In this document: piece after piece, positions 949-44,696 of the stretch | How positions within the stretch are numbered: the stretch's first letter is position 1 | Layout of the letters: each line of letters begins with the position of its first letter | Assembly: GCA_964016885.1 (NCBI GenBank) | Contig: OZ024744.1 | Span: forward strand, 53,134,001 to 53,198,000 | DNA length: 64,000 bases | Source of the DNA: Eledone cirrhosa | Taxonomy: Eukaryota | Direction: 5' to 3' | Notes under the pieces: model-generated | The model's database searches: none | The model's input: the letters and a program-made list of their open reading frames with translations, nothing else | Told to the model about the DNA's origin: nothing | Made by a program: the position numbers and the translations under genes

Positions 949-1043
949 GTTTAAAATAGAGTGGAAAAGATGGGAAAGACCACTTACCGTACTTTTGGTA
1001 GAGGAGGGATGGTTTTTACATCCCTTTTCACTTGATCGTCTGG

Positions 1044-3092
1044 TTAAGGGACCGTTGAATCGTCCCTTCGGCTGGTCGTCGGCTCTTCTAAGAGAATGTC
1101 TGAATATACTCTTCGATTGATGGTTCCTCCTAGGTCCCTGAAATCACCAACTGCGTTGGGGAATTTCGTTTTAATGTTTGTGTATTGTTTCTGTGCTATT
1201 TTTAGCAGTCTTATGTTAGTTGGCATTTTGATTGGTGCTGGTATTATGTAGTCCTGTTGTGAAATGTCTGTGTGTTCAATTATGTAAGTCATTAGTTTCT
1301 TGTTGTGTGTATTTATTGCCGTGCATTTGTTTTTCTGGGGGTGGGGTGTGGTTCTGCTATTTTCTTGTCGTTGTTGCTGGGTGTGTGTGTTTTGTTGTTG
1401 TGTTTGCGATGTTGGTGCTTGCGGTGGTGGTGTTGAAGGTGTTGTTGGCGGTGGGGTTGTCGCCGGTGGTGATGGTGGTGCTAGTGTGGGTGGTGATGGT
1501 GTTGGTGTTGTTGCTGCTGTGGGTCTATTTGCAGTAGACTTTACCCTTTTCTCATTTCTTTCCTCCCTTTTCAAAGGGGACGATGCGCTGCTTCTGCGTT
1601 TGTGCCTTCTTACGACCTTTTGCCATCCCTCTCCCACCTCACACTCCATGTCTGATTCTGTGAGGTCGGGGAGGGGTACCAGCTCCACTCTTTCACTTGT
1701 TGTTGTTGGTGATGTTTGCACTGGAGTCTCTGTTGCAGCTGCATTTGGTATTGCTGTTGTTGTTGTTAATATATCCACTGCTGCTGCTGTTTTTGATTTC
1801 CGTGGAGTGGGTATGGGTGCCACGGACCTATCGTTCCTGGTTGCCGCTTGTCCTGTTGCTGGTAGCCGTGGAGCCGGATTCGGAAGGAGGGGGGTTTTCT
1901 CCTTTCTCAGGGTCTTCTCGTTGCAGAAGGCCCTGAGGTGAGTCTTCGATCCACAGCGAAAGCATTTCGGGCGTTTGCCCTCAACACTTATGGGCAGTTG
2001 AGTGCCGTTATCGAAGTCTATCACATCCGGGATAGCTTCGATGCACTCCTGGTTGGTTTGGATTAGCATCTCAATGGAGGTGCCTACCCAATCTTCTCTT
2101 ACTTTTTTCTGTACTTGCAGTACAGTTGTTTTGTCCTCGATTCCGACGAGGACAGACGCGGCCAGCCAAGAAGGGGCCATTCCGGGGGGGGGGGGGACGT
2201 GGGTCAGTTTGACCCTCACAATTTTTTGCCCGCAGTAGGAGGGCACCAACACCATTTCCTCGCTACTTAGGGTCACTACTGATTGGGCCTTTGCCTCCTG
2301 GGGTGTGGAAAAAAGTACGTCTACGGTGGCATATTTTTTGCCTCGGGTGATGTGCGTTTTCCGCTGCCACACAGACCCCAAGGCCTTTTGTATTTGGGCC
2401 TCTGTGGCTCTTCCACCCTACGGGATTTTTGTACTTACTGTACGGTACGTGACCGTACAATGCTCTTGGGTTTCGAAAAATTTTTCCGCTGCCTTGCAGA
2501 TTGCTCGGTGTCCATTCTTTGTCACCATCTTCTTCGCTTCCTCTAATTCCTCATTTGTTATGAGGATTGTTTCCAAGTTTTTCGCAATACCTGCAAATGA
2601 AATTGGTTTTTCTCTGCTGCTGCTGTTGTTGTTGTCGTCAGAGCTGCTGGTACTTTTGTTGTTGCTGCAGGTACTACGACTACTGCCTCCGCCGCTGTTG
2701 CTGTGGTTGTTGTTGGTGTTGCTGCTGCTAATTCTGTTGTTGTTTATGCTGCTGGTGATGCTGTTGCGGCTGCTACTGTTGTTTTCATTGTCACTGTTGC
2801 TGTTGTTATTACGGCTGCTACTGCTATTATTCCTGACGTCAGACGAATGAACTGGGTTTTCGTATTTCCCGCACACCTGTTTCGTCGCTGTCGTCGTCAT
2901 CGTGGAGAAACCTTGCACGCTTTGCACGAGACTTTTCTTTTCTTTCGTCACTTGCGAAAGAGAAGGGATGGAGAGAGACACATTTAAAGAAGGGAGGGAG
3001 AGAGACAATCTTCTCTCTGCTGTAGTGATGATTGAGGAAGAAGAAGACGGAATGAGTGGGAGTGACGTATGAAATTTCTTTTTCGTAGCCAT
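1044..3092 (-). pseudogene. Tx1 ORF1 (gag-like: RRM-like region, CCHC knuckle, Pro/Thr linker, C-terminal domain), interrupted by a stop at 2418
   Basis: ORFs 2418..3092 and 1044..2381 are in the same frame and homologous to the other ORF1 copies. Confidence 0.85.
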
Positions 3093-3331: not shown

Positions 3332-6300
3332 CGCCGAGGTGGATGTTCCACCGGTACTAGTGCCCAGCTGGTAGAAGGTTGTGAGCGCTTGGAGACATTC
3401 CAGCTTCCAAACGCTATCCCTCGGTCTTTTTCTGATCCAGGAATGCAGCACCGTCGAGAAGACGAGCTGGGGAAAAACACCTCAGGGAAACGGTGACCAC
3501 ACCTGTTCACCGCCAATGAGAGCACTAGAGATGTCGCAGCCTCAGCGCATGTTTGCGCATCATCAGCCACAGCATGCCTAGCCCTCTACGCAAGGTGGGT
3601 TGACAGTAGATGTATCGTCTGACCATGGGAGCACGTCCCTTCCAAAACAAGTGGAAGAGGAGGCGCTCCATTTTGGTCAGATTTGGGCGGGGCCAACGCA
3701 CGACGGTCAGGCGGTGGCAAATGACGGACGCGATGTACGCATTCGACACCTCCGCCCGACCTTTCTCAGACAGCCTCCTCTCGGCCCATTTCTGGGTGAG
3801 AGAAGCCACCTTGCTCGTCACATTTCTCCATCTGGAGGTACGGACCGAATCAGACCCCGAGCAATTTAACTGGTCCTTCCGTCCAGCGCGCCACGACCCT
3901 GTCGGACGGCATGTACTCGCCTCTCCAGGTGCCGAGTTGCAAGCCCACCGACTTTTTCTGGTTTATCTTTGCTCCTGTCACCTCTTCGTATTCCTTGAGA
4001 GCGGTGCCGAGAATCTGGAGGTGTTTGGTGCTCGACACCACCACTGTAACGTCATCGGCGTAAGTTGATACGGATCTCCCGCATCCCAGTTCGCGAGGGA
4101 CTCCCTCATGGTCTCCAATTTGTGCAGTAATGGCTCGAGGGCCAATACGTACAAGAGGGACGAGAGGGGACAACCCTGACGGTCCGAGCGCATGATGCTC
4201 AACGGGTGCGGCAGGTGACTATTCACCCTCACAATAGAGCAGATATCACGTCGGTTGCGACGCCTGTCCTATACTCCTCTTCTAGCTTTCTAACTAGCTC
4301 TCCCTCAACTCTCTTTTCCTCAATTACTACTTCTTTGCTAAACCTTATCGATTCTGCCCTAATAGCCCTTTTCAGGGTAAACTACCACCTGTTGTTAACG
4401 ATCGGACCCGTCAACGCACGCTTAACTAATTCGCTAATCCAGTCTCTGTAAGCTTTGTGCGCCGGGAACGACGCGTTCATCTCCCAGTAGCCGGACCCAT
4501 GCCTATGGAGTCTATCTAAGTCAATTCACAGATCACAAATTTGTGGTCCGTGTAGTTGACTATTTAAATTATAGACAACCTACACTAGCCTTATCTGTTT
4601 CCCTACAGAATACCCTATCTAAATACGATCTGGATGACCCGATGCGGTTTGCCCATGTCCACATTAGCACATTCGGATAATCCAGTCTATACCTATCAGA
4701 CAGTTGAAAACGTCTGAGCAGGTTGTTGAGGCTTTTTCACCCTCCTGCGCTGTCTAATAACTCAACATATTCCCAGCGTGCATCCAAGATACCGTTCCAG
4801 TCGCCCACTAAAGAGCGGGACGTTCCAAGGAAGATCTCTAGACGTCTGATGAAATCTGACCGTCCTGTCCCTGTCGGGGCGTAGACGGCTACTAGCCCGA
4901 AAGCATTGCCTTCGCTGCCGGTCAAGTCCAGCACCACCGACTTACCTTCTCTCCAAAAAAGCGCAGCAACACCTCCTCCCGCTCCCGGACGGCTAGGAGA
5001 TGTGTACACATCGTAGCCGCCGAAGATCGATGCGAAGGCTCGTGCTTCGGAGATTCTAGTCTCACTGATGGCCACCGCATCTATGTCTAGTGACCCGAGG
5101 TCGTTCAGAAGGTGACCCTATTTCCAAGATGACGCAGGCGACGTACACTTATAATGCCTATTCTAAATACGCCCATGCTGGATGAGGAAACGGGGCAAGT
5201 GAGAAAGGATCACTTACCTTAATCGTGTGGGGAAGGGACAGTAGAACCGTCCCTTCGGCTGGTCATTGGTGTCTCCAAGATGATATCCGTATATATTCTT
5301 TTGGAGAGTGACCCTCTGAAATCCCAAACTGCGTTGGATAATTTTTGCTTTAATTGTTTATAGTCTTCGAGTTTAATTGTAACGTTTCTGGTTAATGTTC
5401 TTGGTGTTGTTGGGGTGTGGTAATTTAAGTCTGTAATGTCTGTGTGTTATTTTATATAGGTTCCATTAATCCTTTGTGTGTGATATTTATATTTTTTGGG
5501 GGGTGGGGGTAGGGTTGATTCTGTTGCTGTTTTCTTGCTGTTACTGTTGGGTGCGTGTGCTTCGTTGTGTTTGCGATGTTGATGTTTTGGGGGATGCTGG
5601 TGGTGGTATGGTTGTTGTTGGTGGTGATGATTGTGGTGGTAATGGTAATGGTGGTCGTATTGCTGTAAGTCTCCTCGCAGCCTTTACCCTTCTTTCTTTG
5701 CCTTTGCTTTTGGAGGGAGAAGCTGTGGTCATTTGGCGTTTGATCTTTTTGCTGACAACCATTTTCCACATCTCACCCGTTTCATGCTCCATATCCGACT
5801 GTGAGATGTTGGGGACGGGTATGAGTTCTACCCTTTCATTTGTCTTTGTTGTTGTTGGTGGTGGTGGTGGTGGAGCCTGGCCTGCCGTATTTGGTACATG
5901 TGCAGCTAGGGCAACTGATTTTATTACTGCAGCAACCACCGTTGTTTTTATTGTCTGTGGCTTCGGTATGGGTGCCACGGACGCTGTCTTCCTACTCTCT
6001 GTAGAAGCTCCCTACTTTTTCGCTGACTGCTCTGTTGGCAGCGGTTTCGGCGTTGGAAGGAGGGGGACCTTGGCCTTTGTTATTTTCTGTTGGAAGCACT
6101 TTGGGCTTCTTCCTTCCAGACACGACCAGCTAACGCACGGGTACGTAGGGCGGGAACTGGGTTACCCTGACATTTGCAATTTTTTCCCGCAGTAAAACAG
6201 GACTAACGTTATGTCATAACTCCGTAGGGTCCTCAGTGAGTGTGATTTTTCTTCCTGGGTGGAAGCAAAAAGGATGTCCACGGTAGCATATTTCTTGTCT

Positions 6301-7343: not shown

Positions 7344-7608
7344 AATAATAATAATAATAATAATGTTTTCATTATTAAACACAAGGGTTCACATAAAGTA
7401 GACATTAAGGACAGTACAGGACAATACAGGACGGTACAAATGGGCATTTCTGCGTGTAAAAAAATCAGAGGATGAATTAAAATAACAAAGAAAAATTCCC
7501 CAATAGGGGGGAGACTTCCGAGGGACATTTGTGGTGAAAGCCCATTAAAAGACCACAGTGGCCCTGACCACCAGGGCAAGTGCCCTCTCCCAGTTTTCCA
7601 CCTTTAAT

Positions 7609-10600
7609 TTACAGACACATACTCAGAGAAGGCCCATTCATTCGGGCCATACTTGCTTCTCTCACCCATCTTTCAACAAAATGCTGGGAAGAGAGCACTT
7701 CCCTCTCTACCCTGATTTTCCTTTTCAGATGAAATTTGAAAAAGTTAATCAGGGCATCACCGAAGAGGTAAGTGCTCGTCTTCAGCCCTTTCAAACGTGT
7801 CCACCATACTATCTCTTTCGCCATGGCCACCAGACAGATAAAAACTGCCTGCCCTTCCCGGCTAAAGGAAGGGGGCGGGGCAATCCTCACGATGGACTCA
7901 GCTGATAGCTGGATCCGTCCTACACGTGACAGCAGGTGTTCGACATAAACCCACAAGTCAGTAATGCTCGGACACCGGACGAGTGCGTGCAGGACGGTTT
8001 CGTCGCCCTGTGCGCATCTCGGACATGCCCGGCTGACGGCACCTCCATGACTGTAGAGTTTATCCCGAACTGGCAAAGCTCCTCGGTAGCACTGCCAGGC
8101 CAGGGATTTCTGGAAGTTGTCCATAGGCCCCGGCCCGAAAGTCCTTCCGAAGAGATTGGCTAGTTGATTTTCATCGACGCCTAGAGTTTCTCCAAGTACG
8201 TCGTCGCTCTTCCCCTCCACTAATCCCCTATAGAACGCCAAGGTGGAGTTTCCACCGATCACATTGCCCGATTGGTCGAGGGCTGTGAGCGCCTGAAGAC
8301 ATTCCAGCCTCCAAGCGCTCCCTCTCGGTCTTCGCTTGACCCAGGACTGCAGTTCCGTCAAGGAGACAAGCTGGGGAAAAACGTGTCTAGCAAACGGCGA
8401 CCACACCTGATCACCGTTGAGGAAGAGGTGGAGATGTCGTAGCCTGAGCGCGTGTCTGCGCATCATCAGCCACGGCATGCCCAGCCCTCCACGTAGCGGG
8501 TGTTGACAGCAGATGGACCGCCTGACCATCGGAGCGCGTCCCTTCCACAAGAAGCGAAAGAGCAAACGCTCCAGCGCAGTCAGGCGGGGCTTAGGACAAG
8601 GTACGACGGTCAGGCGGTAGTAGATGACGGATGCGATGTACGCATTCGCCACCTCCGCTCGACCTTTCAGGGATAGCTTCCTCTCCGCCCATTTCTGGGT
8701 GAGAGAAGCCACCCTGCTCGTCACCTCGTCCCAGTTTTTGTCCGTCTGGAGGTCCGGACCGAACCAGACCCCTAGCAATTTAACCGGTCCGTCCGTCCAG
8801 CGCCCGACGTGGCTGTTGGACGGCATGGACCTGCCTCTCCAGGTGCCGAGCTGCAGGCCCACTGACTTTTCCTGGTTGATCATTGCTCCTGTCACCGCTT
8901 CGTATTCTCTTAGTGTAGTGCCGATCGCCTCGATGTGTTTGGCGTTCGACACCACTACGGTGACATCGTCCGCATATGCTGACACGGATCTTACGCATCC
9001 TAGTTCAGGCGGTACCCCCCTCAACGTCTCCAGTTTGTGCAGTAATGGCTCGAGAGTCAATACGTACAATAGGGACGAGAGGGGACAACCTTGGCGGACC
9101 GAGCGCATGATGTTGAACGGTTCCGAAAGGTGACCGTTCACTCTCACTACAGAGCAGATGTCGCTGTGCATGGCAGCGATCCAGCCTCTGAAGACGGGCC
9201 CAAAGCCAGCCGCCCTCAGGACTGCCGCTAGGTAACGATGGTTGACCCTATCGAAGGCTTTCGATTGATCTAAATTGATCAAAGACCCACCCTTGCCAGG
9301 TTCCCTAGCTACCCTCTCTACGATGTATCGCATGAGGTGGAGGATGTCGTGGATAGATCTGTCGGGAATGGCGCATGTCTGTGCCTCTCCCACCAGACCA
9401 CCAACGACAAGCGCCAACCTCTTTGCTAGCACCTCGGCCAAAATCTTGAACTCTGTGTTTAGCAGAGTTATGGGCCTAAAATTATCTATGTTATCCCCCT
9501 TGTTAGGATCCTTTCTCAGCAGCGCCACCGCTCCTCGGCTCAGAGCTGGGAATTCTCCCGTTCTGTTGCCAGTTGCAGTAGACGTCCGCCAAGAGGCCTC
9601 CGAACAAGTTTGGCATTTGTACGTAAAGTTCATAGGGCAGACCATCCAAACCAGGCGATTTACCCCTTGTGCAACTAGTCATTGCATCCCGTACTTCAGC
9701 GGTTGTTATCGGCTTTTCGCAACACTCCGCCTCAGTGGCCGAAAGCCGCGGCAGTCCGTCGAGGTAGACACTAAAGTTCATCCCTCGATCCGGCCCGCCA
9801 CTGCCCCCGAACAGTTGAGCGAAGTGTCGCTGAAAAGCCTCACACATTTGCCCGGGATCGAGTAGCATGCGCCCGTCGTGGTCCACCAAAGACCGGATCG
9901 TGGCTTTGTTGCCACGACGCGCCTCCGCCACTCGGGCCCATTGAACGGCTTTCGTCCCCTCGTGTCTGAGAGCACGCACCCTATCTCGGACAACGCAGCC
10001 TTCGTGCTTTGCATTGAAGAATTGGTCAAGGGCCAATTTCGCCGCAAGTACGTCGGTCGCGATGCCTTTGCTAAGCGCCTCATCTAATTTTCTAACTAGT
10101 TCTCCCTCTGCTCTATTTTTCTCTATTGCTAAAGTCTTACTAAACCTAATGGACTCTATTCTAATTGCTCTTTTCAGAGCAAACCACCACTTGTTGTTGA
10201 CGATGGCCCCCGTCAACGCCCGCTTAACTAGTTCGCTAATCCGGTCTCTGTAGGCCTTGCGCGCTGGTAAGGACGCGTTTAGCTTCCAGTAGCCGGGTCC
10301 TCGCCTATGAAGCCTATCTAAGTCAAGCACACAGATCACGAATTTGTGGTCCGTGTAGCTGACTATCTTGAATTGTGGACAGCCTATGCTAGACCTATCC
10401 ATTTCCCTACAAAATACTCTATCTAGATATGATCTGGTTGACCCTATGCGATTTGCCCAAGTCCACATTGGTACATTCGGGAAATCCATTCGGTACCTGT
10501 CAGACAGTTCAAAACGTCTGAGCAGGTTGGTGAGATTCTTTCACCCTCCTTCCCTATCCACTAATCCCACACAATCCCAGCGTGCATCTAAGATCACGTT

Positions 10601-11026
10601 CCAGTCGCCCACTAACACTAAAAAGCGGGACGTTCCAAGAAAAGTCTCCAGACGCCGGAAGAAATCAGGCCGCCCTGCTCCTGTCGGGGCATAGACGGCC
10701 ACTAACCTGAAAGCTTGCCCGTCTCCGCTGGTCACGTCCAGCACCACCAACTTACCTTCTGGGTCCAGGAATATGGCCCGTATGGCAAGATCCAAACCTC
10801 TCCGAAAAAGCACAGCAACTCCTCCCCCCGATCCCGGACGGCTGGGAGATGCGTACACATCGTAGCCGCCGAAGATCGGTGCGAAAGCCTGTGCTTCGGA
10901 GATTCTGGTCTCGCTGATGGCCACTACATCTATGTTTAGTGACCTGAGGTCGTTGAGCAGGTGGCCCTGCTTCCATGACGACCCCAAGCCACGCGCAATT
11001 ATGCTGCCTATTCTGAGTGAGGTCAT
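7609..11026 (-). pseudogene. Tx1 ORF2: APE endonuclease + reverse transcriptase + C-terminal Cys motif; one premature stop and one frameshift
   Basis: ORF pieces 10541..11026, 9503..10489 and 7609..9645 carry KSPGLDG, RPITLLN, DQSKAFDRV, RQGCPLS, YADD and CPRC..ETVLHALVRC. Confidence 0.93.
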
Positions 11027-11060
11027 GTTGAAATGGAGTGGAAAAGATGGGAAAGACCAC

Positions 11061-13059
11061 TTACCTTACTTCTCGTAGGGGAAGGACGGTTTTTCCATCC
11101 TTTTCTCTGCTTGTGGCCTCCTCAGGAAGGATGTCCTTATAAATCCTCCTGGAGAGTGCTTGTCGGAAGTCTCCGATGTCTTTGGGGAATTTTTGTTTTA
11201 GTGTCATGTACGTTTTCTGTGTGATGCGAGTGATTTGTATGTGTGGAGGTGGTGTGAATTTTGGGGTTGTTGTGTAGTCTTTTTCTGTGATGCTGGTGTT
11301 GTGTTGGATGTAGTGCAATAATTGCTTGTTGTTCAAATTTAATGCTGTGTAGTGTGTATCGTTTTGGTTGTTTTGTTTTGTTTGCGTTTGTTGTGGGTTT
11401 GTTTCTGTTTCGCCTTTTGGTGACTTTTGTGGTGTAGGTGGTGATGGTGGTGTTGGAGTTAATGATGGTGATGGTGTTGGTGTTTGTGTTGATGGGGTTG
11501 GTGATGCTGGTGTGGATGGTGGCATATCTGTCCTAACTTTTTTGTTTCTTAGTTTATTTGTTCCCTCTGTATTTTGTTTTTGGAGGGGGAAGGAAGAGAA
11601 TTTTTTCTTTTTTGGTTTCTTTTTTTTTTTCCGGATATCGTTTCCCACTCCTCGTCGTCACAATCTGTCTCCAGTTGTGATAGGCCGGGGAGTGGAAAAT
11701 CCTCCACAGCCGTTAGTTTTGGTTGTGGTGTGGTGGATGGTGTAGGCGCTGGTGCTAGTTCTGAAGCGTTGGGTGGTGGTGGTGTTGGTTTTGCTGGTGG
11801 TGGTAGTGGTGTTAGTTTTGCTACTGTTGCTGGGGTTGTTGCTGTTATAGTTGCTTCTGTTGTTGCTGCTACAGTTGTTGCTGGCATCTCTGCTACTGGT
11901 GGTGTTGATGGTTGTGTCATTGGGGTGGGTAGGAGAGGTGGTCTCAACCTTTTAGCCTGAGGGCAGAAAGCCCTTAGGTGGGTTCCTTCACCACAAACGA
12001 CACACCTAGGTCTTCTGCCCTCGACAATTACCGTGAGGTGTCTGCCGTCAGTGAGGTCTATTACCTCTGGGATCTCTTCAATGCTTTTTTGGTCCGCTTG
12101 GATCAGGAGCTCCATCCCAGATCCGGACCAGTTTTCCTGCTTTTCTTTTGCTATTGCTATTATTTTCGTGTTGGTTTCGATGCCGGCGAGGACAGCCGCT
12201 ATTAGCCAGGGAATTTCGATGGCCGGTGGAACGTGGGTCACCCTGATCTTTACGAATCTCTGGCCACAATAGCTTGGGACGAGTGTGAAGTCGTCACTTT
12301 TTAATGGGGCCATGGAGTGTTCTCTAGCCTCCTCTGGTGTTTCAAAGAACACATCCACGGTTCCATACTTTTGCCCACGTCTGATGTGGGTTTTTCTTGC
12401 CCACACATGTCCCAAAGCTTTTTAGATTTGGGACTCGGATGCCCGTTCCACTCGGCGCGATTTTACATTTATTGTTCTATACGACACGGTACATAGGCGC
12501 TGATGCTCCATTTTATTAGGTGGGGGGTGGGGGTGAGGCTGACCCTGTACCCATCTTTCTTTACCATTTGTTTGGCATTTTCTAAATCCTCTTGAGTTAC
12601 CGTGAACGCTTCGAATTGTTTTGCTACGATGGCGAAACTGAGGGTCGGTTTTATAATGTCATTGTTGTTGTTGCTATCGTTATTTGTGTTAATATTAATT
12701 TTAGTTTCAGTTGTGGTGGTGGTGACGTCAGTCGTCTTTGGTGCGGAAGAGTCCATTTTGCTTGATTTCATTTCGACATCACGAGTTAATTTATTTTTTT
12801 CTTCTTTTGTTTCTGTTGTCGCGGTGGTGGTGGGGGTGGTGGTTGTCGCGGTGGTAGTGGTGGTGGAGGCTTTAACACCTGCAGTCATTGGTAATGGCGG
12901 GAAATGAATGTCTGCCTGAGACAAATTTAAAATATTGCTACTGGTTATATTTTTTTTTGTGTTGGCAAACGTAGTAACATTTACAATGGTGGTGTCGGTG
13001 TGAGGTGTTATTTTGTGAGGAAGGCTTTCAGCTGCTTCGTGCAGATGGGAATTAGCCAT
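11061..13059 (-). pseudogene. Tx1 ORF1, frameshifted
   Basis: ORFs 12469..13059, 11549..12415 (CVVCGEGTHLRAFC) and 11061..11648. Confidence 0.88.
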
Positions 13060-13267
13060 TTTTTTTCAAAGAAATTTTTGGATAATAATAAAAGTTAAAA
13101 TTTTGGGCACAAGGCCCCAATCTCTTTGGGTGTCCTTTTCGGAAAACAATGTATGTGTGCTTATAAACAGTTAACAATAAAATTTTCCATAAATGGCAAT
13201 TTTTAACTAACGGAAATAACAAACCTTTGCGGAGCTCACGATGATACGATTTACTACGTAGGTCACC

Positions 13268-13307
<40 letters not shown>
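13268..13307. repeat. (AAT)n junction tract
   Basis: About 13 AAT units between the Tx1 C 5' end and a Dong element. Confidence 0.95.
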
Positions 13308-13310
<3 letters not shown>

Positions 13311-15690
13311 TTGGATAAATGCCTTCACAGAGTCTCATGAGCTGTTAGCCCAACTTTACAATGAAATAGTTAAGGTGCCAGAAAAGATACCTTCATGGCT
13401 AGTTAACGGCATTACATTCCTGCTTCCGAAGAATGATGAGACAAACAATCCTAAAAATTACAGACCGATAACTTGCTTGACCACAATGTATAAAATTTTA
13501 ACATCAGTCCTAACTGAATACACATATGACCACCTGATAACAAATGACCTATTTCCCATTGAGCAGAAAGGGTGTAAACGAGGCTCATATGGCTGTAAGG
13601 AACAGATTTTGGTTAACAAAATGATACTGGAAGATTGTCATAATAGACACAAAAATCTATCAATTGCTTGGATAGATTATAAAAAAGCATTCGATAGTTT
13701 GCCACACAGTTGGATTGAAAAATGTTTAGAGATTTTCAAAATATCTCCCGTTGTCAGGAGGTTCCTGTCATTCAGTATGAAGACATGGAAAACGACACTC
13801 CTTTTGAATAGGGAAAAAAAATCACTGGAAGATGGAGAAGTTAATATTAATTGTGGAATTTTTCAGGGTGACTCTTTATCACCGCTTTTATTCTGCATCG
13901 CACTTATACCATTAAGTAAAATGCTCAATGAAACAAAACATGGATATAAATTCAATGACAAAACCATTAATCACTTGTTCTACATGGATGACCTGAAACT
14001 ATTTGCAGAAAATGATGAACAATTGCAAGGGCTATTATCCACTGTGAAGCAGTTCAGTGATGACATTAAAATGGAGTTTGGACTAGATAAATGCGCCAAA
14101 GCAACGTTCACCAGAGGAAAGCTGTTGAAGAGTTCAGACATTAATCTTGATCGGGGGAACGTGATAAGAGAACTTGATCAAGAAAAAACCTACAAATATC
14201 TAGGTGTTTGTGAAGGAGACAGAATCAAGCACTCAACAATGAGGGAAAGGATAAGGAAGGAATGTTACCGCAGAGTAAGAGCAATCTTAAGAACGGAATT
14301 GAATGCAAGGAATAGGATCGATGCTATAAACACGCTTGCCATACCAGTAGTAACCTACAGTTACAATGTCATCAACTGGTCAAGCACAGAGATCCGTAGG
14401 CTCGATACAAAAATTAGAAAATTCTTAACCATGCACAGAATGCATCACCCTAAGGCAGATATAGATAGAATATATCTCCCTAGGAAAGAAGGAGGACGTG
14501 GGTTAATCCAGTTAGACATTGCGTTGAAAACTGCAACAATTGGATTATCTACATATCTAAGGGAATCACATGATTGGATGATCAAACTCGTTTTGAAACA
14601 CGAAAGCATCAAAAGATCATATTCCATTACAAAAGATGCACAAAGATACAGTAATGGACTACAAATTTCAGAAGTCCCATTTACTGCTGAAATGGAAAAC
14701 ACAGAATAAGCAAAGCAGGTAAAAGTAACTGCAAAGAAAGAACTGCTACAGAAACTGGCTAAGAAATGGCAAGAAAAGCCTCTGTATGGAAAATACCCAG
14801 AGCGAGCTAACAATCCTGATGTTGACAAAACTTTAACCCATCAGTGGTTGGCATCCTCTGGACTGAAATCGGAGACTGAAGGACTGATTATATCGGCACA
14901 AGATCAGTGTCTGCCAACAAAAAATTACCAAGCCAACATAATAAAAAATGGGTGCAGCCCATTATGCCGTGTATGCAAAAAACAACCAGAGACCATTGAC
15001 CATATAATTTCAATGTGCAGTCCTATAGCTCCAACCGAACACCTAAACAGGCATGACAGAGCTGCACAATACATACATTGGATAATGTGTAAGCATTTTG
15101 ACCTGCCCCATCAAAAGAATTGGTGGGAGCATCAACCACCTCTAATACTTGAAAAAGATCACATCTCAATCTTGTGGAACTTTAGCATCCAAACAGACCG
15201 AAAAATAGATGCAAACAGACCTGATATAATATTGAAGGACTTTCAAAAGAGGGTATGCCTGCTAATTGATATGTCTGTTCCAATAGACAAGAATGTATCT
15301 ATAAAAACATTTGAAAAATTGAGCAAGTATAAGGACCTGGAGATAGAAATTGGAAAAATGTGGAAATTGAGAACTAAAACAATACCAGTGGTTGTAGGCG
15401 CTCTGGGAATGATACCTAAGGGGTCTAATGATTACTTATCGCAAATCCCAGGAAATCCGCGTATAGGAGAAATATTAAAGATAGTACTAATGGGAACGGC
15501 CCATATACTAAGGAAGATTCTGTCAATATAAGTACATCACAAGTCTAAACACTAAAGATGCATGTGTGAATATGTATGTTCCTTCTTGAACATGGCGGAC
15601 CTTGTTGTCTCTTGAGGTCACTGGTTGTGACTTGGTGATAACTCGTATGAAAATAAAGCAAGATAAATGCAACTGTAATAATAATAATAA
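13308..15690 (+). mobile_element. R4/Dong-type non-LTR retrotransposon, 5'-truncated, with (TAA)n tail
   Basis: RT (YRPITCL, IDYKKAFDS, GIFQGDSLSP, YMDD), then CRVC..ETIDHIISMC, RHD, RPD..D..K and KY.DL motifs of a restriction-like endonuclease. One stop at 14709. Confidence 0.92.
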
Positions 15691-15700
15691 TTAGTAATAA

Positions 15701-19200: not shown

Positions 19201-20437
19201 TGACCCCAGGCCACGTGCATTTATACTGCCTATTCTGAGTACGGCCATGTTGGATGAGAAACGGGGAAAGTGAGAAAGGCTCACTTACCTTGTTCGTGTG
19301 GTGAAGGGACAGTAGAACCGTCCCTTTCGCTGGTCATGGGTGTTTCCAAGAGGATGTCAGTGTATATCCTCCTGGTAACCGACCCTCTGAAGTCTCCAAC
19401 TGCGTTGGGGAATTTTTGTTTTAAAGGTTTGTACTGTTCTATTGAGATTTCAATGATGTTTATGTTTGTCGGGAGAGTTCTTGGTGTTGGTGGGGTGCAG
19501 TAGTTTTTTTCTGTGATGTCTGTGTGTTGCTTTATATATTGTACGAGTTCTTTTTTTGCCATGTTTATGGCTGTGTACTTTTTTGGGGGAGGGGTGATTT
19601 TGTTGCTGTTTTCTTCTTGCTGCTGTTTGGTGTGTGTGTCTTGTTGTGTTTGCGTTGTTGGTGTTTTTGGTGATGCTGCTGGTGGTGGTGTGGTTGTTGT
19701 TGGCGGTGGTGCTTGTGGTGGTGATCGTGACGGTGGTGGTGTTGCTGCAAGTTTTCTTGCTGCCTTTACCCCTCTTTGTGTGCCTTCGCTTTTGGAGGTT
19801 AAATCTAAGGGTTTTTTGTTTTTTCGTTTTTTTTTGTGACAGACCGTTTGCAACTTCACTCTCGCCTCAAGCTCCATGTCGGATTCCGTAGCGTCTGGGA
19901 GGGGTATGTGCTCCACGGCTGTTGGTGGTGGTAGTGGAGCCCTCTTCGGCAATTTTGTTGCTGGTGTAGCTACTTCAAATGTAGCTATTGGTGTTGCCGC
20001 CACTGATGCTGCTGCTTTAGTTGTCCGTGGCCTTGGTACGGGTGCCACGGACGGTGCTCTCCTACTCACCGTGGAAGGGGCTTCTGCGTTTGTTGCCTGC
20101 CCTGCTCTTGATAGCAGCGGACCAAGTATTGGAAGGAGAGGGGCCTTCTTCTTCGCTGTTTTCTGCGGGCAAAAGGCCCTGAGGTGACCCTTTGACCCAC
20201 AGAGATAACATTTTGGCCGTCTTCCTTCTACGCTTATAGGGAGTTGGAGTCCTTCCTCGAGGTCTACGATATCGGGGATAGCCTCGATACATTCCTGGTC
20301 AGTTTGTATAAGCATTTGCATGCCTATACCTGACCAGTTCTCTCTCCCTATTTTCTCTACTGTGGCGTACTTTCTGCCTTGGGTGATGTGGGTTTTGCGT
20401 GCCCAGACGCACCCCAAGGCCTTTTGGATTTGAGCCT
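16292..20437 (-). mobile_element. Tx1 copy D (B/D subfamily), 5'-truncated in ORF1, multiple internal deletions
   Basis: ORF1 19281..20417 (CYLCGSKGHLRAFC), ORF2 ATG 19248 with APE/RT fragments, and a 3'UTR ending in CCCTTGTGGCCAATAAAGAAATC + (ATT)n. Confidence 0.9.
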
Positions 20438-20459: not shown

Positions 20460-23400
20460 GGGAAGAGGACGCACGTGGTGGATAGAATGTTATATAATCG
20501 CTCCCGTAAGTTTTTGATTTTTAACATATTTAAAACAATTGTGATATAACAATTCTTAGTATAAATGAGACATAAAGCGCCAGACTCTACTCTCAGAAAA
20601 TTCGGTCCATAATAACCTGTTATATCGCTCAATTATTCAATTTTGTATTATAAATTTCATATTCAAAAAAGAAAATGGTTAAAAATGGAAGAAAATCCCC
20701 TCTGTCTACACTATATAGAACAGCCAAATAACAGCAATTTCAGCAACGCCACAAACTAGATACACTACCTATCCCATCACCCGTCTGTGTACAGTAAATA
20801 CAACAGCCAGATAACGGCAATTTCACCACCACCACCACCAATCTCAGCATAATAATAATAATTACTATTATTGTATCTCAAGTTTTCCCAAAATGTTTAA
20901 TTCAAATATTAAGGAAATTTGTCAACACATATATTGAACATACGCGACAAACCGCATAGATACACAGATCAAACAAACGCATACTACTACAGTCTATTCA
21001 ACAAAACTCAGTAACGACAACGGCATCACTATAGTCACCGCCGCCACCACTCCATCATTGCTACCACTATCCCATCACTACAGTCACCGCCGCCACCACA
21101 CCATCATTGATACCACTTTCCCACCACCGCCGCCACCACTCCATCATTGCTACCACCACTATTCCCCCACTACCTTCTGTAAACTTAAGAAAGGGGAAGG
21201 TGACGGTATCACTAGACAAGGGAGAGGCTAACAAAAGATATAAATAGACTGACTTAGTGACCCGGTCAATGTCAACGACTATGGCACTGCTGGCTCTGCC
21301 CTTCCCCACCAACAATAGAAAAAGCCCCAGCACCACCAACGATATAGCCAACAACAATAACAGGCAACTTCAACAAAAAGTATATTATATTATTAATAAT
21401 AATTTCATTCTTAAGCCACGCAATGCTCACATTAAAGAACCACTCATGATAATAACAATTTAAAAAAAACAACAAAAAAGAAAACCCGTGACCAAGAAAT
21501 ACCGGGATGGCGGCCGGCGGGGAATAGCCGTGTCTCTAGGGGAGGACAACCCCTCTAGTCTTGATTGACACTCGTCCTAGAAGTGGTAACACGAAATGAT
21601 TACTCCTTGACGGTTAACGCTAAAACGCGACAAAATAAAGTAAATGTCAAATGATAAAATCTCATACCGGATCGGCCGTCACCCGGGTCAAAAAGGACCA
21701 GACTGGGGTCGAAAAATCAGCTTATGGTTCAAACCTTCCCATCACTTTGGAGCTGGAGACCTCCCATAATCGGAATACTCCTACTGTTGGCCCTCCATCC
21801 TCCCCATCAAGAAATCCAAAGAAAAAGAGAGATAAATGGTCAAGGGAAGACAATAAAGAAGTTCTTGAGGCTTTCTAGACTGCCATGTACTACCCATCAA
21901 ATAGATCGAATACAGAACAGACATATATCAACTGGAAAAAGAAACATCCCGAAAACAGAGGCTATATTGACAGTAATAAACTAGCTAATATACGAAGAAA
22001 TATTGTTAAAAAAAAGTTACTAACTGATATAGAAATTGATCAGATCAAGCAATTAGCACAAAGTCAGCGAAGGGAAAATGAAACATGTGTCAGTGAAAAC
22101 GAGGTAAACTGTAACACTTCGAATCGCAGGGTTGGGGCGGAATCACTGGCAACAGAACAAATTAAAGAAAGGATAAAAAAAGTGGAGGGAGTGCATGCTC
22201 ATAATGAAACTCAAAATGAAAACAATGAGATCGTAAATGATAAAGAAATGAATAAGAATGAACTTGCCAACTTGAAGGATGAAATTATGATCGATTGGGT
22301 GAAAATGAAAGAATCTGACATGGGGCAACGAGACACCCTCCCTAAGATGCAGAACTCCAAACAGAACCAAAAGATAATACACAAGACTAACATAATTCTC
22401 AAAAACATTATCATCACAAACAAACTAAACATTACTGATTTAAAACATCTCTACTATGCATCGGCTAAAGTCACCACTCACTTATGTGGAGTGAAAATGA
22501 AAAAACAAAGGAATTCCCACAAAAAATCTACTTGGCAAGAGAACATCAATCGCCTAATAAACCTTCTCCAATCTGACATAGAAATGTTAACAAACTACAA
22601 AGTAGGTGAACATGTTAAACAAACTAAACTTAGAAAATTGAAAAGAAAATACAGTATAAAATCAACAAGTGACATTGACATGCTGATAGAAATAATCAAG
22701 CAAAAAGTGTCGGCCAAAGCTGCTCGTATAAGGCGCTTTGAAAAACGATCTAGATTCTATAAGGACAATAATATGTTCAAAAACAACCAAACAAACTTCT
22801 ACAGAAAAATTGGCAAGTCAACAATAACTGCTAAATCAATGCCACCCAAGGAGGAAGTGCAAGAATTCTGGGAAAAGATCTGGGCCGAAGAAAAACTTCA
22901 TAATATACATGCCCTATGGATAGACAGATAAATGAAAGATACAACTGACTTTGAGTAACAAATATGGGAAAATATAACAGTTGAACAGTTGCGTTTGGCT
23001 CTTAGAAAAACCAGCAAATGGAAATCCCCAGGAAAAGACAAAATACCAAATTTTTGGATAAATGCCTTCACAGAGTCTCATGAGCTGTTAGCCCAACTTT
23101 ACAATGAAATAGTTAAGGAGCCAGAAAAGATACCTTCATGGCTAGTTAACGGCATTACATTCCTGCTTCCGAAGAATGGTGAGACAAACAATCCCAAAAA
23201 TTGAAGACCGATAACTTGCTTGACCACAATGTATAAAATATTAACATCAGTCCTTACTGAATATACATATGACCACCTGATAACAAATGACCTATTTCCT
23301 AATGAGCAGAAAGGGTGTAAAGGAGGCTCATATGGCTGTAAGGAACAGATTTTGGTTAACAAAATGATACTGGAAGATTGTCATAATAGACACAAAAATC

Positions 23401-25418
23401 TATCAATTGCTTGGATAGATTATAAAAAAGCATTCGATAGTTTGCCACACAGTTGGATTGAAAAATGTTTAGAGATTTTCAAAATATCTCCCGTTGTCAG
23501 GAGGTTCCTGTCATTCAGTATGAAGACATGGAAAACGACACTCCTTTTGAATAGGGAAAAAAAATCACTGGAAGATGGAGAAGTTAATATTAATTGTGGA
23601 ATTTTTCAGGGTGACTCTTTATCACCGCTTTTATTCTGCATCGCACTTATACCATTAAGTAAAATGCTCAATGAAACAAAACATGGATATAAAGTCTATG
23701 ACAAAACCATTAATCACCTGTTCTACATGGATGACCTGAAACTATTTGCAAAAAATGGTGAACAATTGCAAGGGCTATTATCCACTGTGGAGCAGTTCAG
23801 TGATGACATTAAAATTGAGTTTGGACTAGAGAAATACGCCAATGCAACGTTCACCAGAGGAAAGCTGCTGAAAAGTTCTGACATTAATCTTGATCGGGGG
23901 AATGTGATAAGGGAATTTGATCAAGAGGAAACTTACACATATCTAGGCGTTTGTGAAGGAGACGGAATCACGCACTCGACAATGGGGGTAGGATAAGGAA
24001 GGAATGTTACCGCAGAGTAAGAGCAATCTTAAGAACGGAATTGAATGCAAGGAATAGGATTGGTGCCATACACACGCTTGCCATACCAGTAGTAACCTAC
24101 AGTTACAATGTCATCAACTGGTCAAGCACAGAGATCCGTAGGCTCGATACAAAAATTAGAAAATTCTTAACCATGCACAGAATGCATCACCCTAAGGCAG
24201 ATACAGATAGAATATATCTCCCTAGGAAAGAAAGAGGACGTGGGTTAATCCAGTTAGAGATTGCGTTGAAAACTGCAACAATTGGATTATCTACATATCT
24301 AAGGGAATCACATGATTGGATGATCAAACTCGTTTTGAAACACGAAAGCATCAAGAGATCATACTCCATTACAAAAGATGCACAAAGATACACTGTAATG
24401 GACTACAAATTTCAGAAGTCCCATTTATTGCTGAAATGGAAAACACAGAAAAAGCAAAGCAGGTAAAAGTAACTCCAAAGAACGAACTGCTACAAAAACT
24501 GGCTAAGAAATGGCAAGAAAAGCCTCTGTATGGAAAATACCCCAAAAGAGCTAACAATCCTGACATTGACAAAACTTTAACCCATCAGTGGTTAGCATGT
24601 TCTGGACTGAAATCGGAGACTGAAGGACTGATTATATCAGCACAAGATCAGTGTCTGCCAACAAAAAATTACCAAGCCAACATAATAAAAAATGGATGCA
24701 ACCCATTATGCCGTGTATGTAAAAAACAACCAGAGACCATTGATCATATAATTTCAATGTGCAATCCTATAGCTCCAACCGAATACCAAATGAGGCCTGA
24801 CAGAGCTGCACAATACATACATTGGATAATGTGTAAGCATTTTGACCTGCCCCATCAAAAGAATTGGTGGGAGCATCAACCACCTCCCATACTTGAAAAA
24901 GATCACATCTCAATCTTGTAGTACTTTAGCATCCAAACAGACCGAAAAATAGATGCAAATAGACCTGATATAATACTGAAGGAATTTAAAAGAGGGTATG
25001 CCTGCTAATTGATATGTCCCTGCCAATAGACAAGAATGTATCTATAAAAACATTTGAAAAATTGAGCAAGTACAAGGACCTGGAGATAGAAATTGGAAAA
25101 ATGTGGAAATTGAGAACGAAAATAATACTAGTGGTTGTAGGCGCTCTAGGAATGATACCTCAGGGGTCTAATGATTACTTATCGCAAATCCCAGGAAACC
25201 CGCGTATAGGAGAAATACAAAAGATAGTACTAATGGGAACGGCCCATATACTAAAGAAGACTCTATCAACATAAGTACATCACAAGTCTAAACACCTAAA
25301 GATGCATGTGTGTGTATGTATGTTCTTCCTTGAACATGGCGGACCTTGTTGTCTCTTGAGGTCACTGGTTGTGACTTGGTGATAACTCGTATGAACATAA
25401 ACCAAGATAAATGCAACT

Positions 25419-25450
<32 letters not shown>
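20460..25450 (+). mobile_element. R4/Dong-type element, probably near full length (5' limit uncertain), with (TAA)n tail
   Basis: Same family as 13308-15690. It starts after (AAT)n at 20438-20459. The 20460-21650 region may be the 5'UTR or partly a separate insertion. Confidence 0.85.
21651..25274 (+). pseudogene. Dong/R4 single ORF (Myb-like N-terminus, RT, CCHC, RLE), several stops and frameshifts
   Basis: KWSREDN motif, WKSPGKDKI, QGDSLSP, YMDD, CRVC, KYKDL across ORFs 21651..25274. Confidence 0.9.
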
Positions 25451-29755: not shown

Positions 29756-32700
29756 GACGACCTACGTAGTAAATCGTATCATCGTGAGCTCTGCAAAGGT
29801 TTCTTATTTTCAGTTGTTTAAAATTGCCATTTATGGAACATTTTTATTGTTAACTGTATATAAGTGCACATACATTGATTTATGAAAAGGACACTCAAAA
29901 ATATTGGGAACTTGAGCCCAAAATTTAAACTTTTTATAATTATCAAACAAAAAAAAATTTCTTTGAAAATCATGGCCGATTCAGAGTCACACCTTCCTCA
30001 CAAGCTAACACCTCACACCGATACCACCATTGTAAATATTACTTCGTTTGCCAACACTAAAAATATATTCAGTAGCAATATTTTAAATTTGTCTCAGGCA
30101 GACATTCATTCCCGCCATTACCAATGACTGCAGGTGTTAAAGCCTCCACCCCCACCACCACCACAACGACAACAGAAACAAAAGAAAAAAATATATTAAC
30201 TCGTGATATCGAAATGTATTCAACCAAAATGAACTCTTCCACACCGAACACCACTGACGTCACCACCACCACAACTGAAACTAAAATTAACAATAACAAA
30301 AATAACGATAACAACAACAGCAACAATGAAATTAAGAAAACTACCCTGTCTTTTGCGAGAGTAACAAAAACGTGCGAAGCGATCGAGGTAACTCAGGAGG
30401 AATTAGAAGAAGCCAAAGAATGGTAAAGAAGGATGGGTACAGGGTCATTATCACCCCCCACCCACACACACACACCCACACACCTAATAAAATGGAGCAT
30501 CATCACCTTTGCACCGTGAATTATCGGACAATTAACATAAAATCGAAATTCCCTGGAAAATGGCTGCCGTTCTCGCCGGCATCGAGGCCAACACCAAGAT
30601 AATCTAAATAGCGAAAGAAAAGCAGGAGGACTGGTCCGGAACTGGGATGGAGCTCCTGATCCAAGCGGACCATAAAAGTATTGAGGAGATCCCAGAGGTA
30701 ATAGACCTCACTGACGGCAGCCACCTCACCGTAATCGTCGAGGGCAAAAGGCCTAGGTGTGTCGTTTGTGGTGAAGGAACCCACGTAAGGGCTTTCTGCC
30801 CTCAGGCTAAAAGGTTGAGGGCCCCTCTCTTACCCACCCCAGAGACTCAACCATCAACACCACAAGCAGCAGAGATGGCAGCAACAAGTGTAGCAGCAAC
30901 AACAGAAGCAACTGTAACAGCAACAACCGCATCAACAGTAGCAAAACCAACACCACCACCACCTAACGCGCCAGAACTAGCACCAGCGCCTACACCATCC
31001 ACCACACCACAACCAAAACTAACGGCTGTGGAGGATTTTCCACTCCCCGGCCTATCACAACTGGAGACAGATTGTGACGACGAGGAGTGGGAAACGATAT
31101 CCGGAAAAAAAAAAGAAACCAAAAAAGAAAAAAATTCTCTTCCTTCCCCCTCCAAAAACAAAATACAGAGGGAACAAATAAACTAAGAAACAAAAAAGTT
31201 AGGACAGATATGCCACCATCCACACCAGCATCACCAACCCCATCAACCCAAACACCAACACCATCACCATCATTAACTCCAACACCACCATCACCTACAC
31301 CACAAAAGTCACCAAAATGCGAAACAGAAACAAACCCACAACAAACGCAAACAAAACAAAACAACCAAAACGATACACACTACACAGCATTAAATTTGTA
31401 CAACAACCAATTATTACACTACATCCCACACAACACCAGCATCACAGAAAAAGACTACACAACAACCCAAAAGTTCACACCGCCTCCACACATACAAATC
31501 ACTCGCATCACACAGAAAACGTACACGACACTAAAACAAAAATTCTCCAAAGACATCGGAGACTTATAAGGACATCCTTCCGGAGGAGGCCACAAGCCGT
31601 GAAAAGGATGCACAAACCATCCTTCCTCTACGAGAAGTAAGGTAAGTGGTATTTCCCATCTTTTCCACTCCATTTCAACATGACCTCACTCAGAATAGGC
31701 AGCATAAATGCGCGTGGCTTGGGGTCCGTCATGGAAGCAGGGCCACCTGCTCAACGACCTCAGGTCACTAAACATAGATGTAGTGGCCATCAGCGAGACC
31801 AGAATCTCCGAAGCACGGGCCTTCGCACCGATCTTCGGCGGCTACGATGTGTACGCATCTCCCAGCCGTCCGGGATCGGGGGGTGGAGTTGCTGTGCTTT
31901 TTCGGAGAGGTTTGGATCTAGCCATACGGGCCATCTTCCTGTACCCAGAAGGTAAGTTGGTGGTGCTAGACGTAACCAACGGAGACGGGCAAGCTTTTAG
32001 GCTAGTGGCCGTCTATGCCCCGACAGGAGCAGGGCGGCCTGATTTCTTCCGGCGTCTGGAGACCTTTCTTGGAACGTCCGGCTCTATAGTGTTAGTGGAA
32101 TCTGGAACGCGAACTTAGATGCGCGCTGGTACTGTGTGGGGTTAGCAGACAGGGGAGGAGGGTGCAAGAGCCTCACCAACCTGCTCAGGCGTTTTGAACT
32201 GTCTGACAGTTGGTTTTGCCGAATGTGCCAATGTGGACTTGGACAAATCGTAGGGTTATCCAGATCATATCTAGATAGAGTATTTTGTAGGGAAATAGAT
32301 AGGTCTAGCATAGGCTGTCCACAATTCAAGATAGTCAGCTACACGGACCACAAATTCGTGATCTGTGTGCTTGACTTAGATAGGTTTCATAGACGAGGAT
32401 CCGGCTACTGGAAGCTAAACGCGTCCTTACCAGCCTCAAAGCCAACAGAGACCAGATTAGCGAACTAATTAAGCGGGCGTTGACGGGGTCCATCGTCAAC
32501 AACAAGTAGTGGTTTGCTCTGCAAAGAGCAAAAAGAATAAAGTCCATTAGGTTTAGTAAGGCTCTAGCAATAGAAAAAAATAAAGCAGAGGGAGAATTAG
32601 TTAGAAAATTAGACGAGGCGCTTAGCAAAGGCATCGCCACAAACGTACTTGCGGCGAAATTGGCCCTTGACCAATTCTTCAATGCAAAGCACAAAGGCTG

Positions 32701-41900: not shown

Positions 41901-44696
41901 TGTGATCTGAATAGGCAAGCATGTGCATTCGTGGACAGCTCAACATCTCCTTGTCCCTTTCTCTAATGAAGAACCTATCTAAATACTATATATGTAGATG
42001 TCCCCCTGCGGTTTGCCGACGTCCACTGTGGTGCAGTCGGGAAATCCAGTCGATACCTATCGGCCAGTTGGAATTGGCTGATTAAAGTTTTGAGGCTGTT
42101 GCACCCCCCTCTACTGGGACATGCTCCCACATAGTGCCATCGTGCATCTAGGATACCATTCTAGTCCCCCACTAAAAGTAAGGAGCAAGACGTTCCCAGA
42201 AAAGACTCTAGACGGTTAAAGAAATCTGGCCGTGATTGCGATTGCCCGGTCGGGGCATAAACGGCCACCAGTCTGAAGGCCTCACCTCCAATACTGTTCA
42301 CCTCTAGGACTACGAGTCTACCCTGCGGGTCCAAGTGTACTTGCTGTACTTCGACGTCTAGGTTCTTCCGAAACATGACAGCCACTCCCCTTCCACCTCC
42401 TGGCTGACAGAGAGATGCGTAGATCTCAAAGTCGTCGAAGATGGGGGTTAGTTGCTGCCTTTGTGGGTCCTGGACTTGGTGATGGCTATCACATCCATAC
42501 CGTGTGACCTAAGTTCGTTTAAAAGTTGGCCCTGTTTCCAGAGCATCCCTAGGCCACGCACATTCACGCTTCCAACTCTTAAACTAGCCATGTTGGTGAA
42601 GAAGATTTGGCGAAAAGGACGAAAAGGAGCACTTACCTTTTCGTTTCCTGGAGATCGGGTTATTCAATCTCCATTTCAGTTCTGGTGGGAGTGTTGGGTG
42701 GGGTGGGGTAACATTTTAATAAGATCGGTTAATAGGTTTTTGACAGGGGTTGCCAACATCCTGCGAAAACTGTTCTTTCAATTTCTGATAGGTTTCAATC
42801 GAAACCCTTATTAGTTTTAGGTGTGGAGACGTATCTGCTTTGACGAAAGTTTTGCCCTCCGTCTCCACCTTGGGGTTTTGGGAGATGACCTCCATCGAAT
42901 TCTTGTTGTTTTTGTTGATGTATGCGTATAGTTTGTGTTTTTGTTGTGTTGTTTTAGTTTGTTGTTCGTCCGGGAGTTTTCTTTTTATGGTGGGTGCTTG
43001 TGTTTGGGGTGGTATTGGTGTTGGGTTTGCTGGTAGGGTGTTGTTTGTGTTGTTGTTTGTGTCTGTGGTTGTGTGTTGGTGTTGGTGATTGGAGTTTTGG
43101 GGCTTTCGTGGTGTCTCTTTTTTTGTTTTTAGATTTCCGAGGCTCTTCTTCTTCACTTAAAGAAGAAGCAGCCTCATCTGAATGAATAATCATCGTCAGG
43201 AGTGTGGAGTAGGGATTTGTTGTGTGGTGGTGGTGTTTCGGTGTGTGTGTGTTTGTGGTAGTGTTTGGTGAAATGGGATGGGTGAGGCTGTGTTCTTCAG
43301 GGGTGTTGTCTGTGTTTTTTCTGTTGTTGTTGGTTGAGTGGCTGTGTGTTTTGGTGTGTTTGCTCGTTTCGTCTGTTGTTGTACTTGTGGTCGTGGTTTT
43401 TTGGGTGTTGGTAATAGTGTTGTTGGGGTGTGTTTGTGAAGGACAGGAGGCCTTTAGGTGTGCTCTGCTACCACAGCGAAAGCAATGAAGTTTACGCCCC
43501 ACCACCGAAATCTTTATTTTGTTGTTGTCGTCGATGACTTTTTCGGGCATTTTGGAGACTCTCTCCGGCCTCATTTGCATCAGAATCTCCAAATCAGTAC
43601 CCTCCCACCTTTGTCTAATAGACTTTCGTATTGAAAGAATAGCATCAGTCTCTGGCTCCACGAAGCCGGCCAAGATCCACCAGTTGTTAATGTTTGGTGG
43701 TATATATTTTTTTTTTTTTTTTGTGTCCTTTTTCCCATGTACGTAGGGAAAAGGTGAATGCGTTTGACACCCATTGGTATCACATAATGTTTTGGGGCGA
43801 GTGCCTCGCTTTTAAACAGTACGGAAATACTTCCGTACTGTTTTCCTCGTTGAAGAAAGTCAATATTTGCTAGAGTCTCCTTCAAGTTGGCTTCTATGTC
43901 TCCTTGACTCACAAATATTGGCTTTCTCGTATTTTTTTAGACAGTCCTGAAGGTCACTGTCTTTCGAAATGTCTCTTCTTTTATTTCGATGGGTAAGTTG
44001 ATTCTAAACCTACCCTTGCCTTCGAAAGTTACAGATTTCCTCCCTTGCTGGAGCATATCTCTTGCATTGGAGATGTCAAGATTTATAAAATCTTGTTTTT
44101 TTGTTCACTGTTTCAGCGAAAGACATTTTTTTTGTGGTGTTGCTGTTGTTGTTGGTGTTATCGTTGTTAGCCTCGGTGTTGGAAATCGCAATTTCTTGAC
44201 GAGGTGAAATTTTATCTGTAGATGTATATATGGAGTTGTTGTTATTGGCTGTTTCATGTGTATGTATATTAATAGATTTAATTCCTGTTTTCCTGTGTAT
44301 GTTATTATTTTTCTCCGCTTCGACGGTAGAAATTTTAAAATGTTCAAGTGGCAATCTTATTTTTTCTTTGTTGACAGTCGTATCCATGACGACGTCCATA
44401 GTGGCAGAAGCAGATATGACGTTAATATCTGCCTCTCTACCTCTCTTCTCTCTGTTAACGTTCTCCGGCATTCTTTTCGAGTTATTCATGTTTTATAGTC
44501 GGCAAAATTTGATATTTTTAAACAATTCTTAAATTAAACTTTCGCCCCTAAAGGGGCGAAAAGTGGGATTACCACCCAGCTGACAATTCAGCTTGGGGGC
44601 TAATCTACAAAATGATATGTTTTTTCAAAAAATTAATTCAGTTTTTTGTATAGAAATTTACAAAAAAGCTTACCAGCGATGTTCCACGCGTCAGGC
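38927..44696 (-). mobile_element. Tx1 copy G, full-length diverged family embedded in (GATA)n
   Basis: ORF1 from 44489 (CFRCGSRAHLKASC), ORF2 ATG 42591 to 39161 (APE, RT, CPRC). (GATA)n lies at 38893-38926 and 44697-44870. Confidence 0.92.

Follow-up and report, generated by a model that had tools for sequence, protein, structure and literature searches.

LINE copies in the window

The window, a stretch of 64,000 nt from the 3.0 Gb genome of Eledone cirrhosa, is a nest of LINE copies, often placed head to tail within each other's tails. Copy C (7344–13267, minus strand, the 7344 end being approximate) is a full-length two-ORF LINE of about 5.9 kb located between (ATT)n runs. Both ORFs are broken in this copy: the A-rich ORF1 (11061–13059, minus strand) is frameshifted, and ORF2 (7609–11026, minus strand, ATG at 11026) encodes an endonuclease, a reverse transcriptase (RT) and a zinc finger. 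Copy C is 96–97 % identical to young copies, and its young relative L034 has an open ORF2 of 1139 aa with all three domains. At least 1,074 junction-bearing copies of this family, termed family C, were found by genome search.

The features of L1-group LINEs are present, namely two ORFs, an ORF2 with AP endonuclease, RT and zinc finger, no LTRs, a simple-repeat tail and 5′ truncation. The best solved match of ORF2 is L1 ORF2p (5e-53), ahead of R2 (2e-20). The element is presumably a member of the Tx1 clade. Insertion into specific repeats is common in that clade, and full-length 5′ ends here adjoin (ATT)n in C-type copies and (TCTA)n in G and K copies. Two target classes are apparent overall, (ATT)n for C, A, D and H and (TCTA)n for G and K. 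Kibi and Koshi are placed in Tx1 as well. These are likewise APE-RT LINEs in simple repeats, but the targets here are (ATT)n and (TCTA)n, and no junction donor is mentioned for Kibi and Koshi in the available portion of their description (PMC3812793).

The 3′UTR of copy C contains a C-run/G-run hairpin motif (7498–7511, minus strand) that is common to the families. In the 3′UTRs this hairpin is followed by a U-rich tract and then, in most families, by a TTTACACG-like motif; the shared set is a candidate RT recognition signal. Another RT-bearing family (RVT_1), presumably RTE-like, is represented in the window by two copies 95 % identical to each other (13306–15700 and 23052–25443, plus strand).

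A splice donor motif at the end of ORF1

In copy C the end of ORF1 reads AAG|GTAAGT (11059–11067, minus strand; −3 to +6), with the stop codon TAA forming +2 to +4 (11063–11061). A pyrimidine-rich spacer follows (11027–11058, minus strand), ending in a conserved AAC-type start context of ORF2. The initial annotation had reported GTAAGT at this junction in six copies, and the hexamer is indeed present in each of them: A (982–990, minus strand), B, a member of family D (5212–5220, minus strand), C, D (19283–19291, minus strand), E, a member of family C (31639–31647, plus strand), and G (42631–42639, minus strand). The donor-to-ATG distances of 39, 41, 38, 40, 38 and 45 nt in A, B, C, D, E and G bear out the annotation, as do the phases (2 in A, C, E and G; 1 in B and D) and the first-AG intron lengths of 52–53 nt. 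The preceding AAG, described as usual, occurs in five of six copies, with ACG in A. In copy D, ORF1 ends Gly-Lys-stop and the donor is predicted to be paired with the spacer.

Two statements held in part. The spacer was said to contain no AG in five of six copies; this applies to A, C, E and G, but B has an AG at +40 and D at +9, the latter too close to be used. Likewise, a donor in every copy is correct for all six copies that have the junction, but decayed copies lose the donor and variants of the consensus exist. GTAAGT occurs 37 times in the 128 kb of both strands, and the six-site pattern exceeds chance.

One window copy, an old one, is cut at the ATG (54660–54980, plus strand): its first letters are the ORF2 ATG itself, and the unrelated sequence before it ends in AG. 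No close relatives of this copy were found by genome search. The ORF1 end of family A looks duplicated, with a D-like unit without a donor followed by a C-like unit with one (985–1090, minus strand), so that a single donor is left at the stop. C-type copies also carry an antisense GAG|GTAAGT within the 3′ end of ORF2 (7768, plus strand; 29315 and 35363, minus strand), which is no junction site.

Conservation of the motif across lineages

Junctions were gathered by ORF2 similarity, blind to the donor, from the 584 kb surrounding the window (23 rows, of which one was spurious and one cut at the ATG) and by an ORF2-only genome search. Each type was then enlarged with junction queries, and the enlarged sets lean towards the query. 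Eleven lineages were compared (C, A, C2, D, N, M, H, H2, G, K and K2), of which C2, H2 and K2 are single copies; G2 was left out because its donor loss is private to one copy. The phase of N was taken as 2 by homology, one broken copy reading phase 0, and that of H2 is likewise based on homology, for a single copy. Major clades share 42–57 % identity at four-fold ORF2 sites, and synonymous identity among the 11 lineages goes down to about 45 %.

Donor positions −2 to +6 are kept in 10, 11, 11, 11, 10, 10, 10 and 11 of the 11 lineages, respectively, so that the proposed check against neighbouring positions favours the motif: −3, −4, +7 and +8 agree in 6, 4, 8 and 4 lineages. Two further positions, +12 and +13 (T), agree in 10 of 11. 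The spacer is 82–92 % C/T in all 11 lineages. Nine lineages have an ORF1 ending Arg-stop, with the stop at +2 to +4, and the terminal Arg codon has G as its third letter in 9/9 phase-2 lineages despite an A content of 32–42 % in ORF1. This silent G at +1 and the non-coding T at +6 are invariant over all 11 lineages. The consensus variants are GTAGGT (K), GTGAGT (K2) and GTAATT (M). Among 76 four-fold ORF2 sites used as a null set, 10 are invariant and 24 show at most one departure. Assuming independence, and with 3 of the 11 lineages being single copies, the joint chance comes to roughly 2e-4 for the five donor positions outside the stop and to 0.013 for the three silent or non-coding positions.

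A motif that arose once by accident could have been carried along with the stop codon by plain descent. The lineages are related and recombining, M having a C-like ORF2, and the silent positions differ from the null at the level of 0.013 only. However, the neighbouring positions, the spacer length (36–53 nt over the 11 lineages) and the ORF1 tail have all turned over around the donor. A donor-like control inside ORF2 (ORF2 nt 272; 10750–10758, minus strand) has decayed over the same lineages: it scores 7–8 of 8 in 6/11 and is lost in K, K2, G and H2, whereas the junction donor reaches that score in 11/11. Descent by itself is a quite improbable explanation.

A role in translation would explain the motif differently. 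The Arg codon, a strong stop context, hairpins, the pyrimidine tract and the start context would together promote ORF2 translation by termination-reinitiation or internal initiation, and likeness to a donor would be incidental. The variants GTAA, GTAG and GTGA correspond to TAA, TAG and TGA, the exact set of stops; A carries CGG, which is still Arg yet runs against the donor consensus; hairpins are predicted; and the AAC start context of ORF2 is kept in 10–11 of 11 lineages. Against this, the motif of D and H stands in phase 1, where it is not a stop and ORF1 ends Gly-Lys-stop. D and H are not sisters in the trees, and the donor has survived two independent ORF1 frame shifts. Nor would translation account for the invariance of the silent G at +1 and of the non-coding T at +6, and the stops of ORF2 lack such a context, being preceded by CTG or CTA rather than AGG. 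A purely translational element is thus unlikely.

Conservation across lineages and the comparison with the ORF2-internal control support selection on a U1-type site at the nucleotide level, partly bearing out the splicing- or U1-dependent control proposed in the initial annotation. The ORF1-end motif is probably a functional U1 site of some kind, at which U1 would be expected to bind. It appears to be a real, selected cis-element; there are fair odds that its function is linked to U1.

Decayed copies lose the donor at about the background rate (+1, 11/191; +2, 3/192). Host selection against the donor after insertion was considered and rejected, as +1 and +2 decay like background (p 0.20 and 0.38). 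In family N, 5 of 25 copies have A at +1 (two of them duplicates) and share few other changes, possibly a donor-less sublineage. The ORF2 of family M is near A and C on the tree and its ORF1 end and spacer differ (L209, L285–L309), an indication that the junction has recombined; M junctions joined to different 3′ ends are present in L202 and L206.

Outside this genome, no relatives of the LINE were found in a first metagenome scan or in a viral scan, and relatives of 39–78 % identity matched elsewhere came without DNA. A donor at the ORF1 stop was seen at none of the 14 distant L1-group metagenome loci, out of 28 found in a second scan, for which the start of ORF2 could be read, which limits the trait to this clade as far as seen.

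Genomic copies and the proposed fusion of ORF1 to ORF2

The main model of the initial annotation was a short intron, 52–53 nt in the window copies and 50–61 nt across lineages, the removal of which would fuse ORF1 to ORF2. The first AG is in frame in 7/11 lineages, as the model predicts, but these in-frame AGs are mostly the Arg5 or Ser3 codons of ORF2, and in the remaining four lineages, D, H, M and N, the first AG falls out of frame. LINE RNA that encodes RT is copied back by its own product (cis preference). A fused RNA would encode RT and should therefore be copied back, so that intron-less copies are expected. In family C, none accompanies the 1,074 unspliced copies (95 % bound about 0.3 %), and none is present among three off-pattern matches in family G. 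With neither an in-frame acceptor in all lineages nor intron-less progeny, the fusion was rejected as the main route and is a most improbable account of the donor.

The genome-wide searches for spliced copies were confined to families C and G. For family C the pattern was the exon end followed by non-G and non-T, which both predicted products would match; the single off-pattern match reads TG for GT and has an intact spacer. The family G pattern detects only junctions differing at +3 and +5, and its three off-pattern matches, against an uncounted denominator, all have the spacer intact. A further 150 ORF1-end matches in fetched DNA (incompletely de-duplicated) are all collinear. Genomic copies lacking the donor-to-acceptor interval, of the kind known as SpIREs in human L1, were thus not found in the C and G searches or among the ORF1-end matches; spliced copies make up about 2 % of full-length human L1 events (PMC5860796). 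Signs of an ORF2-only RNA or internal start were also sought: one of 47 5′ ends in the 584 kb falls in the spacer/ATG zone, with no pile-up.

ORF2 as a possible facultative intron

The explanation tentatively preferred here is that this LINE clade has a facultative donor at the ORF1 stop, yielding an ORF1-dedicated RNA that is not copied. Most of the RNA would stay unspliced and be copied, and a share would be spliced from the ORF1 end to a downstream acceptor, losing ORF2. The spliced RNA would serve as an ORF1 mRNA and presumably raise the ORF1p:ORF2p ratio. Making no ORF2p, it would not be expected to be copied, and the absence of spliced copies from the genome is then expected.

In families C and A, the best-scoring AG within 3.6 kb downstream is a 3′UTR site 72–73 nt before the poly(A) signal. 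In copy C this acceptor-like site, a U-rich tract with CAG, lies at 7450–7470 (minus strand) and closes a predicted intron of about 3.6 kb; the ranking is by a generic score of our own. Use of this acceptor is predicted to remove all of ORF2 together with the 3′UTR hairpin. The product would add 19 codons to ORF1, with a stop 12 nt before the poly(A) signal, inside the last exon. The 3′UTR acceptor is absent from G (L200 and the window copy), K (L193) and C2 (L207); D and H have other 3′UTR AGs. No best acceptor is homologous across families, and a shared acceptor of the copia type is therefore lacking. Within the first 880 nt of ORF2, none of the 16 conserved AGs has a strong tract.

Pairing with the pyrimidine spacer is predicted to mask the donor in part. 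ORF2 may, again with some reserve, be regarded as a facultative intron in which a hairpin-gated donor within the ORF1 stop makes an uncopiable ORF1 mRNA. All 11 lineages show some predicted pairing at the donor (mean 0.35–0.78 over −3 to +6), but local donor–spacer pairing clearly beats shuffles (z ≤ −3) only in G, D and N. Masking by a universal hairpin was rejected, being strong in these 3/11 lineages only. One D copy, read by eye, is changed on both hairpin arms. Another hairpin is predicted 20–40 nt upstream of the donor in copy C (11082–11102, minus strand), and A, D, N, G and H have predicted hairpins of different sequence in the corresponding position. An Rfam search returned nothing credible.

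No run recorded as RNA was found to contain this stretch. Contigs from four runs were compared with a full-length copy, and no donor joint is among the 15 of 585 joints listed; contigs drop rare forms, and the kinds of run were unrecorded. A 237 nt contig from a run of another organism (X5) matches exactly across the unspliced donor (L034:3215–3451), reflecting either a close relative or contamination.

5′UTR sites and a possible role of U1 without splicing

Donor-like sites are also located 30–65 nt from the 5′ end (window 44668–44676 and 13219–13227; L200, L193 and L207). That of copy C reads AAG|GTTTGT (13219–13227, minus strand) and is followed by a U-rich tract, and that of copy G (44668–44676, minus strand) marks the start of about 69 nt resembling an intron, with branch-like and acceptor motifs. 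The G stretch is retained in 100 of the 100 copies listed, out of 182 counted, which implies that splicing may not occur at all at donor-like sites in these elements.

These sites bear on the closest rival of the facultative donor, a splicing-independent U1 role. U1 would bind at the ORF1 end and at the second, 5′UTR site, helped by the U/C-rich tract, and would guard full-length RNA from cleavage at poly(A) hexamers in ORF1, or stabilize the RNA. The 5′UTRs of C, C2, G and K all have donor-like sites with U-rich tracts, and retention of the G stretch, the strongest support for this reading, is telling in that splicing there would spare both ORFs. The lack of a conserved acceptor, the presence of up to 10 poly(A) hexamers in ORF1 and the same U1 role in copia (PMC5580714) point in the same direction. 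The hexamers, however, lie upstream of the donor, the nearest being 279–491 nt away in C, where two young copies have 6–7 AATAAA/ATTAAA hexamers in ORF1. Their number (0–10) is also about that expected from ORF1 composition, and a D copy (L205) has none upstream. Moreover, an unused perfect donor before 3.4 kb rich in AGs should be costly. Protection or stabilization by U1 without splicing is, on this evidence, somewhat unlikely. In the copies read, ORF2 has 0–1 poly(A) hexamers over its first 3.2 kb, leaving copia-like early termination without an obvious site, a point against the facultative donor.

Comparison with known elements

The closest parallel to a facultative donor at the ORF1 stop is in plant Ty1/copia elements (EVD; Oberlin et al. 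2017, PMC5580714), in which a U1-type donor is conserved close to where the structural gene ends. There, a spliced subgenomic gag RNA provides the structural protein, and U1 also blocks early termination of full-length RNA (PMC5580714). This LINE likewise has a conserved U1-type donor where its structural gene ends. However, copia has LTRs, a single gag-pol ORF, a short, defined intron generating the stop and coupled early termination (PMC5580714), whereas this LINE, known here from DNA alone, has two ORFs, a donor overlapping an existing stop and no conserved acceptor.

The balance of ORF1p and ORF2p in two-ORF LINEs is still an open question (PMC3894237). If the donor in the ORF1 stop is indeed a selected U1 site, this LINE would be exploiting the spliceosome or U1 of its host deliberately instead of bearing it as a liability, and thousands of strong donors would have been spread through the genome. 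Were the donor also used as proposed, splicing would set the ORF1p:ORF2p ratio, a non-LTR counterpart of the copia subgenomic gag RNA. With over a thousand near-identical young copies, the question of the ORF1-stop donor is readily decidable.

For unspliced LINE RNA, UAAUG coupling in SART1 and IRES proposals (PMC3894237) involve a similar bicistronic layout with a short structured spacer, but this LINE has no overlapping stop-start; such overlapping junctions are present at several of the distant loci. The available text of that review of ORF2 translation contains no occurrence of ‘splic’ (PMC3894237). The introns of TART are antisense (PMC1636488), and L1-Tx1 families are listed as recently active in Octopus vulgaris, in an account that gives no junction detail in its available portion (PMC13282606). 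The literature searched, chiefly non-subscription and exclusive of repeat databases and supplements, yielded no description of a conserved donor at the ORF1 stop of a LINE.

Human L1 is also a LINE with conserved splice sites and a 5′UTR donor, as seen in SpIREs (PMC5860796) and SpORF2 (PMC2896524). There, however, the donors discussed are in the 5′UTR, one being explained by a RUNX3 site, and the products remove ORF1 or parts of the 5′UTR and occur as spliced copies in the genome (PMC5860796, PMC2896524); in this LINE the ORF1 stop holds the donor, and the searches brought no spliced copies to light. A different arrangement is seen in H and M, where a strong acceptor within the spacer follows the donor after 28 and 48 nt, respectively. 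Their spacers (L195–L198, L209) end in this acceptor 5–9 nt before the ORF2 ATG, and by analogy with human SpORF2 it could join to a 5′UTR donor to give an ORF2-only mRNA.
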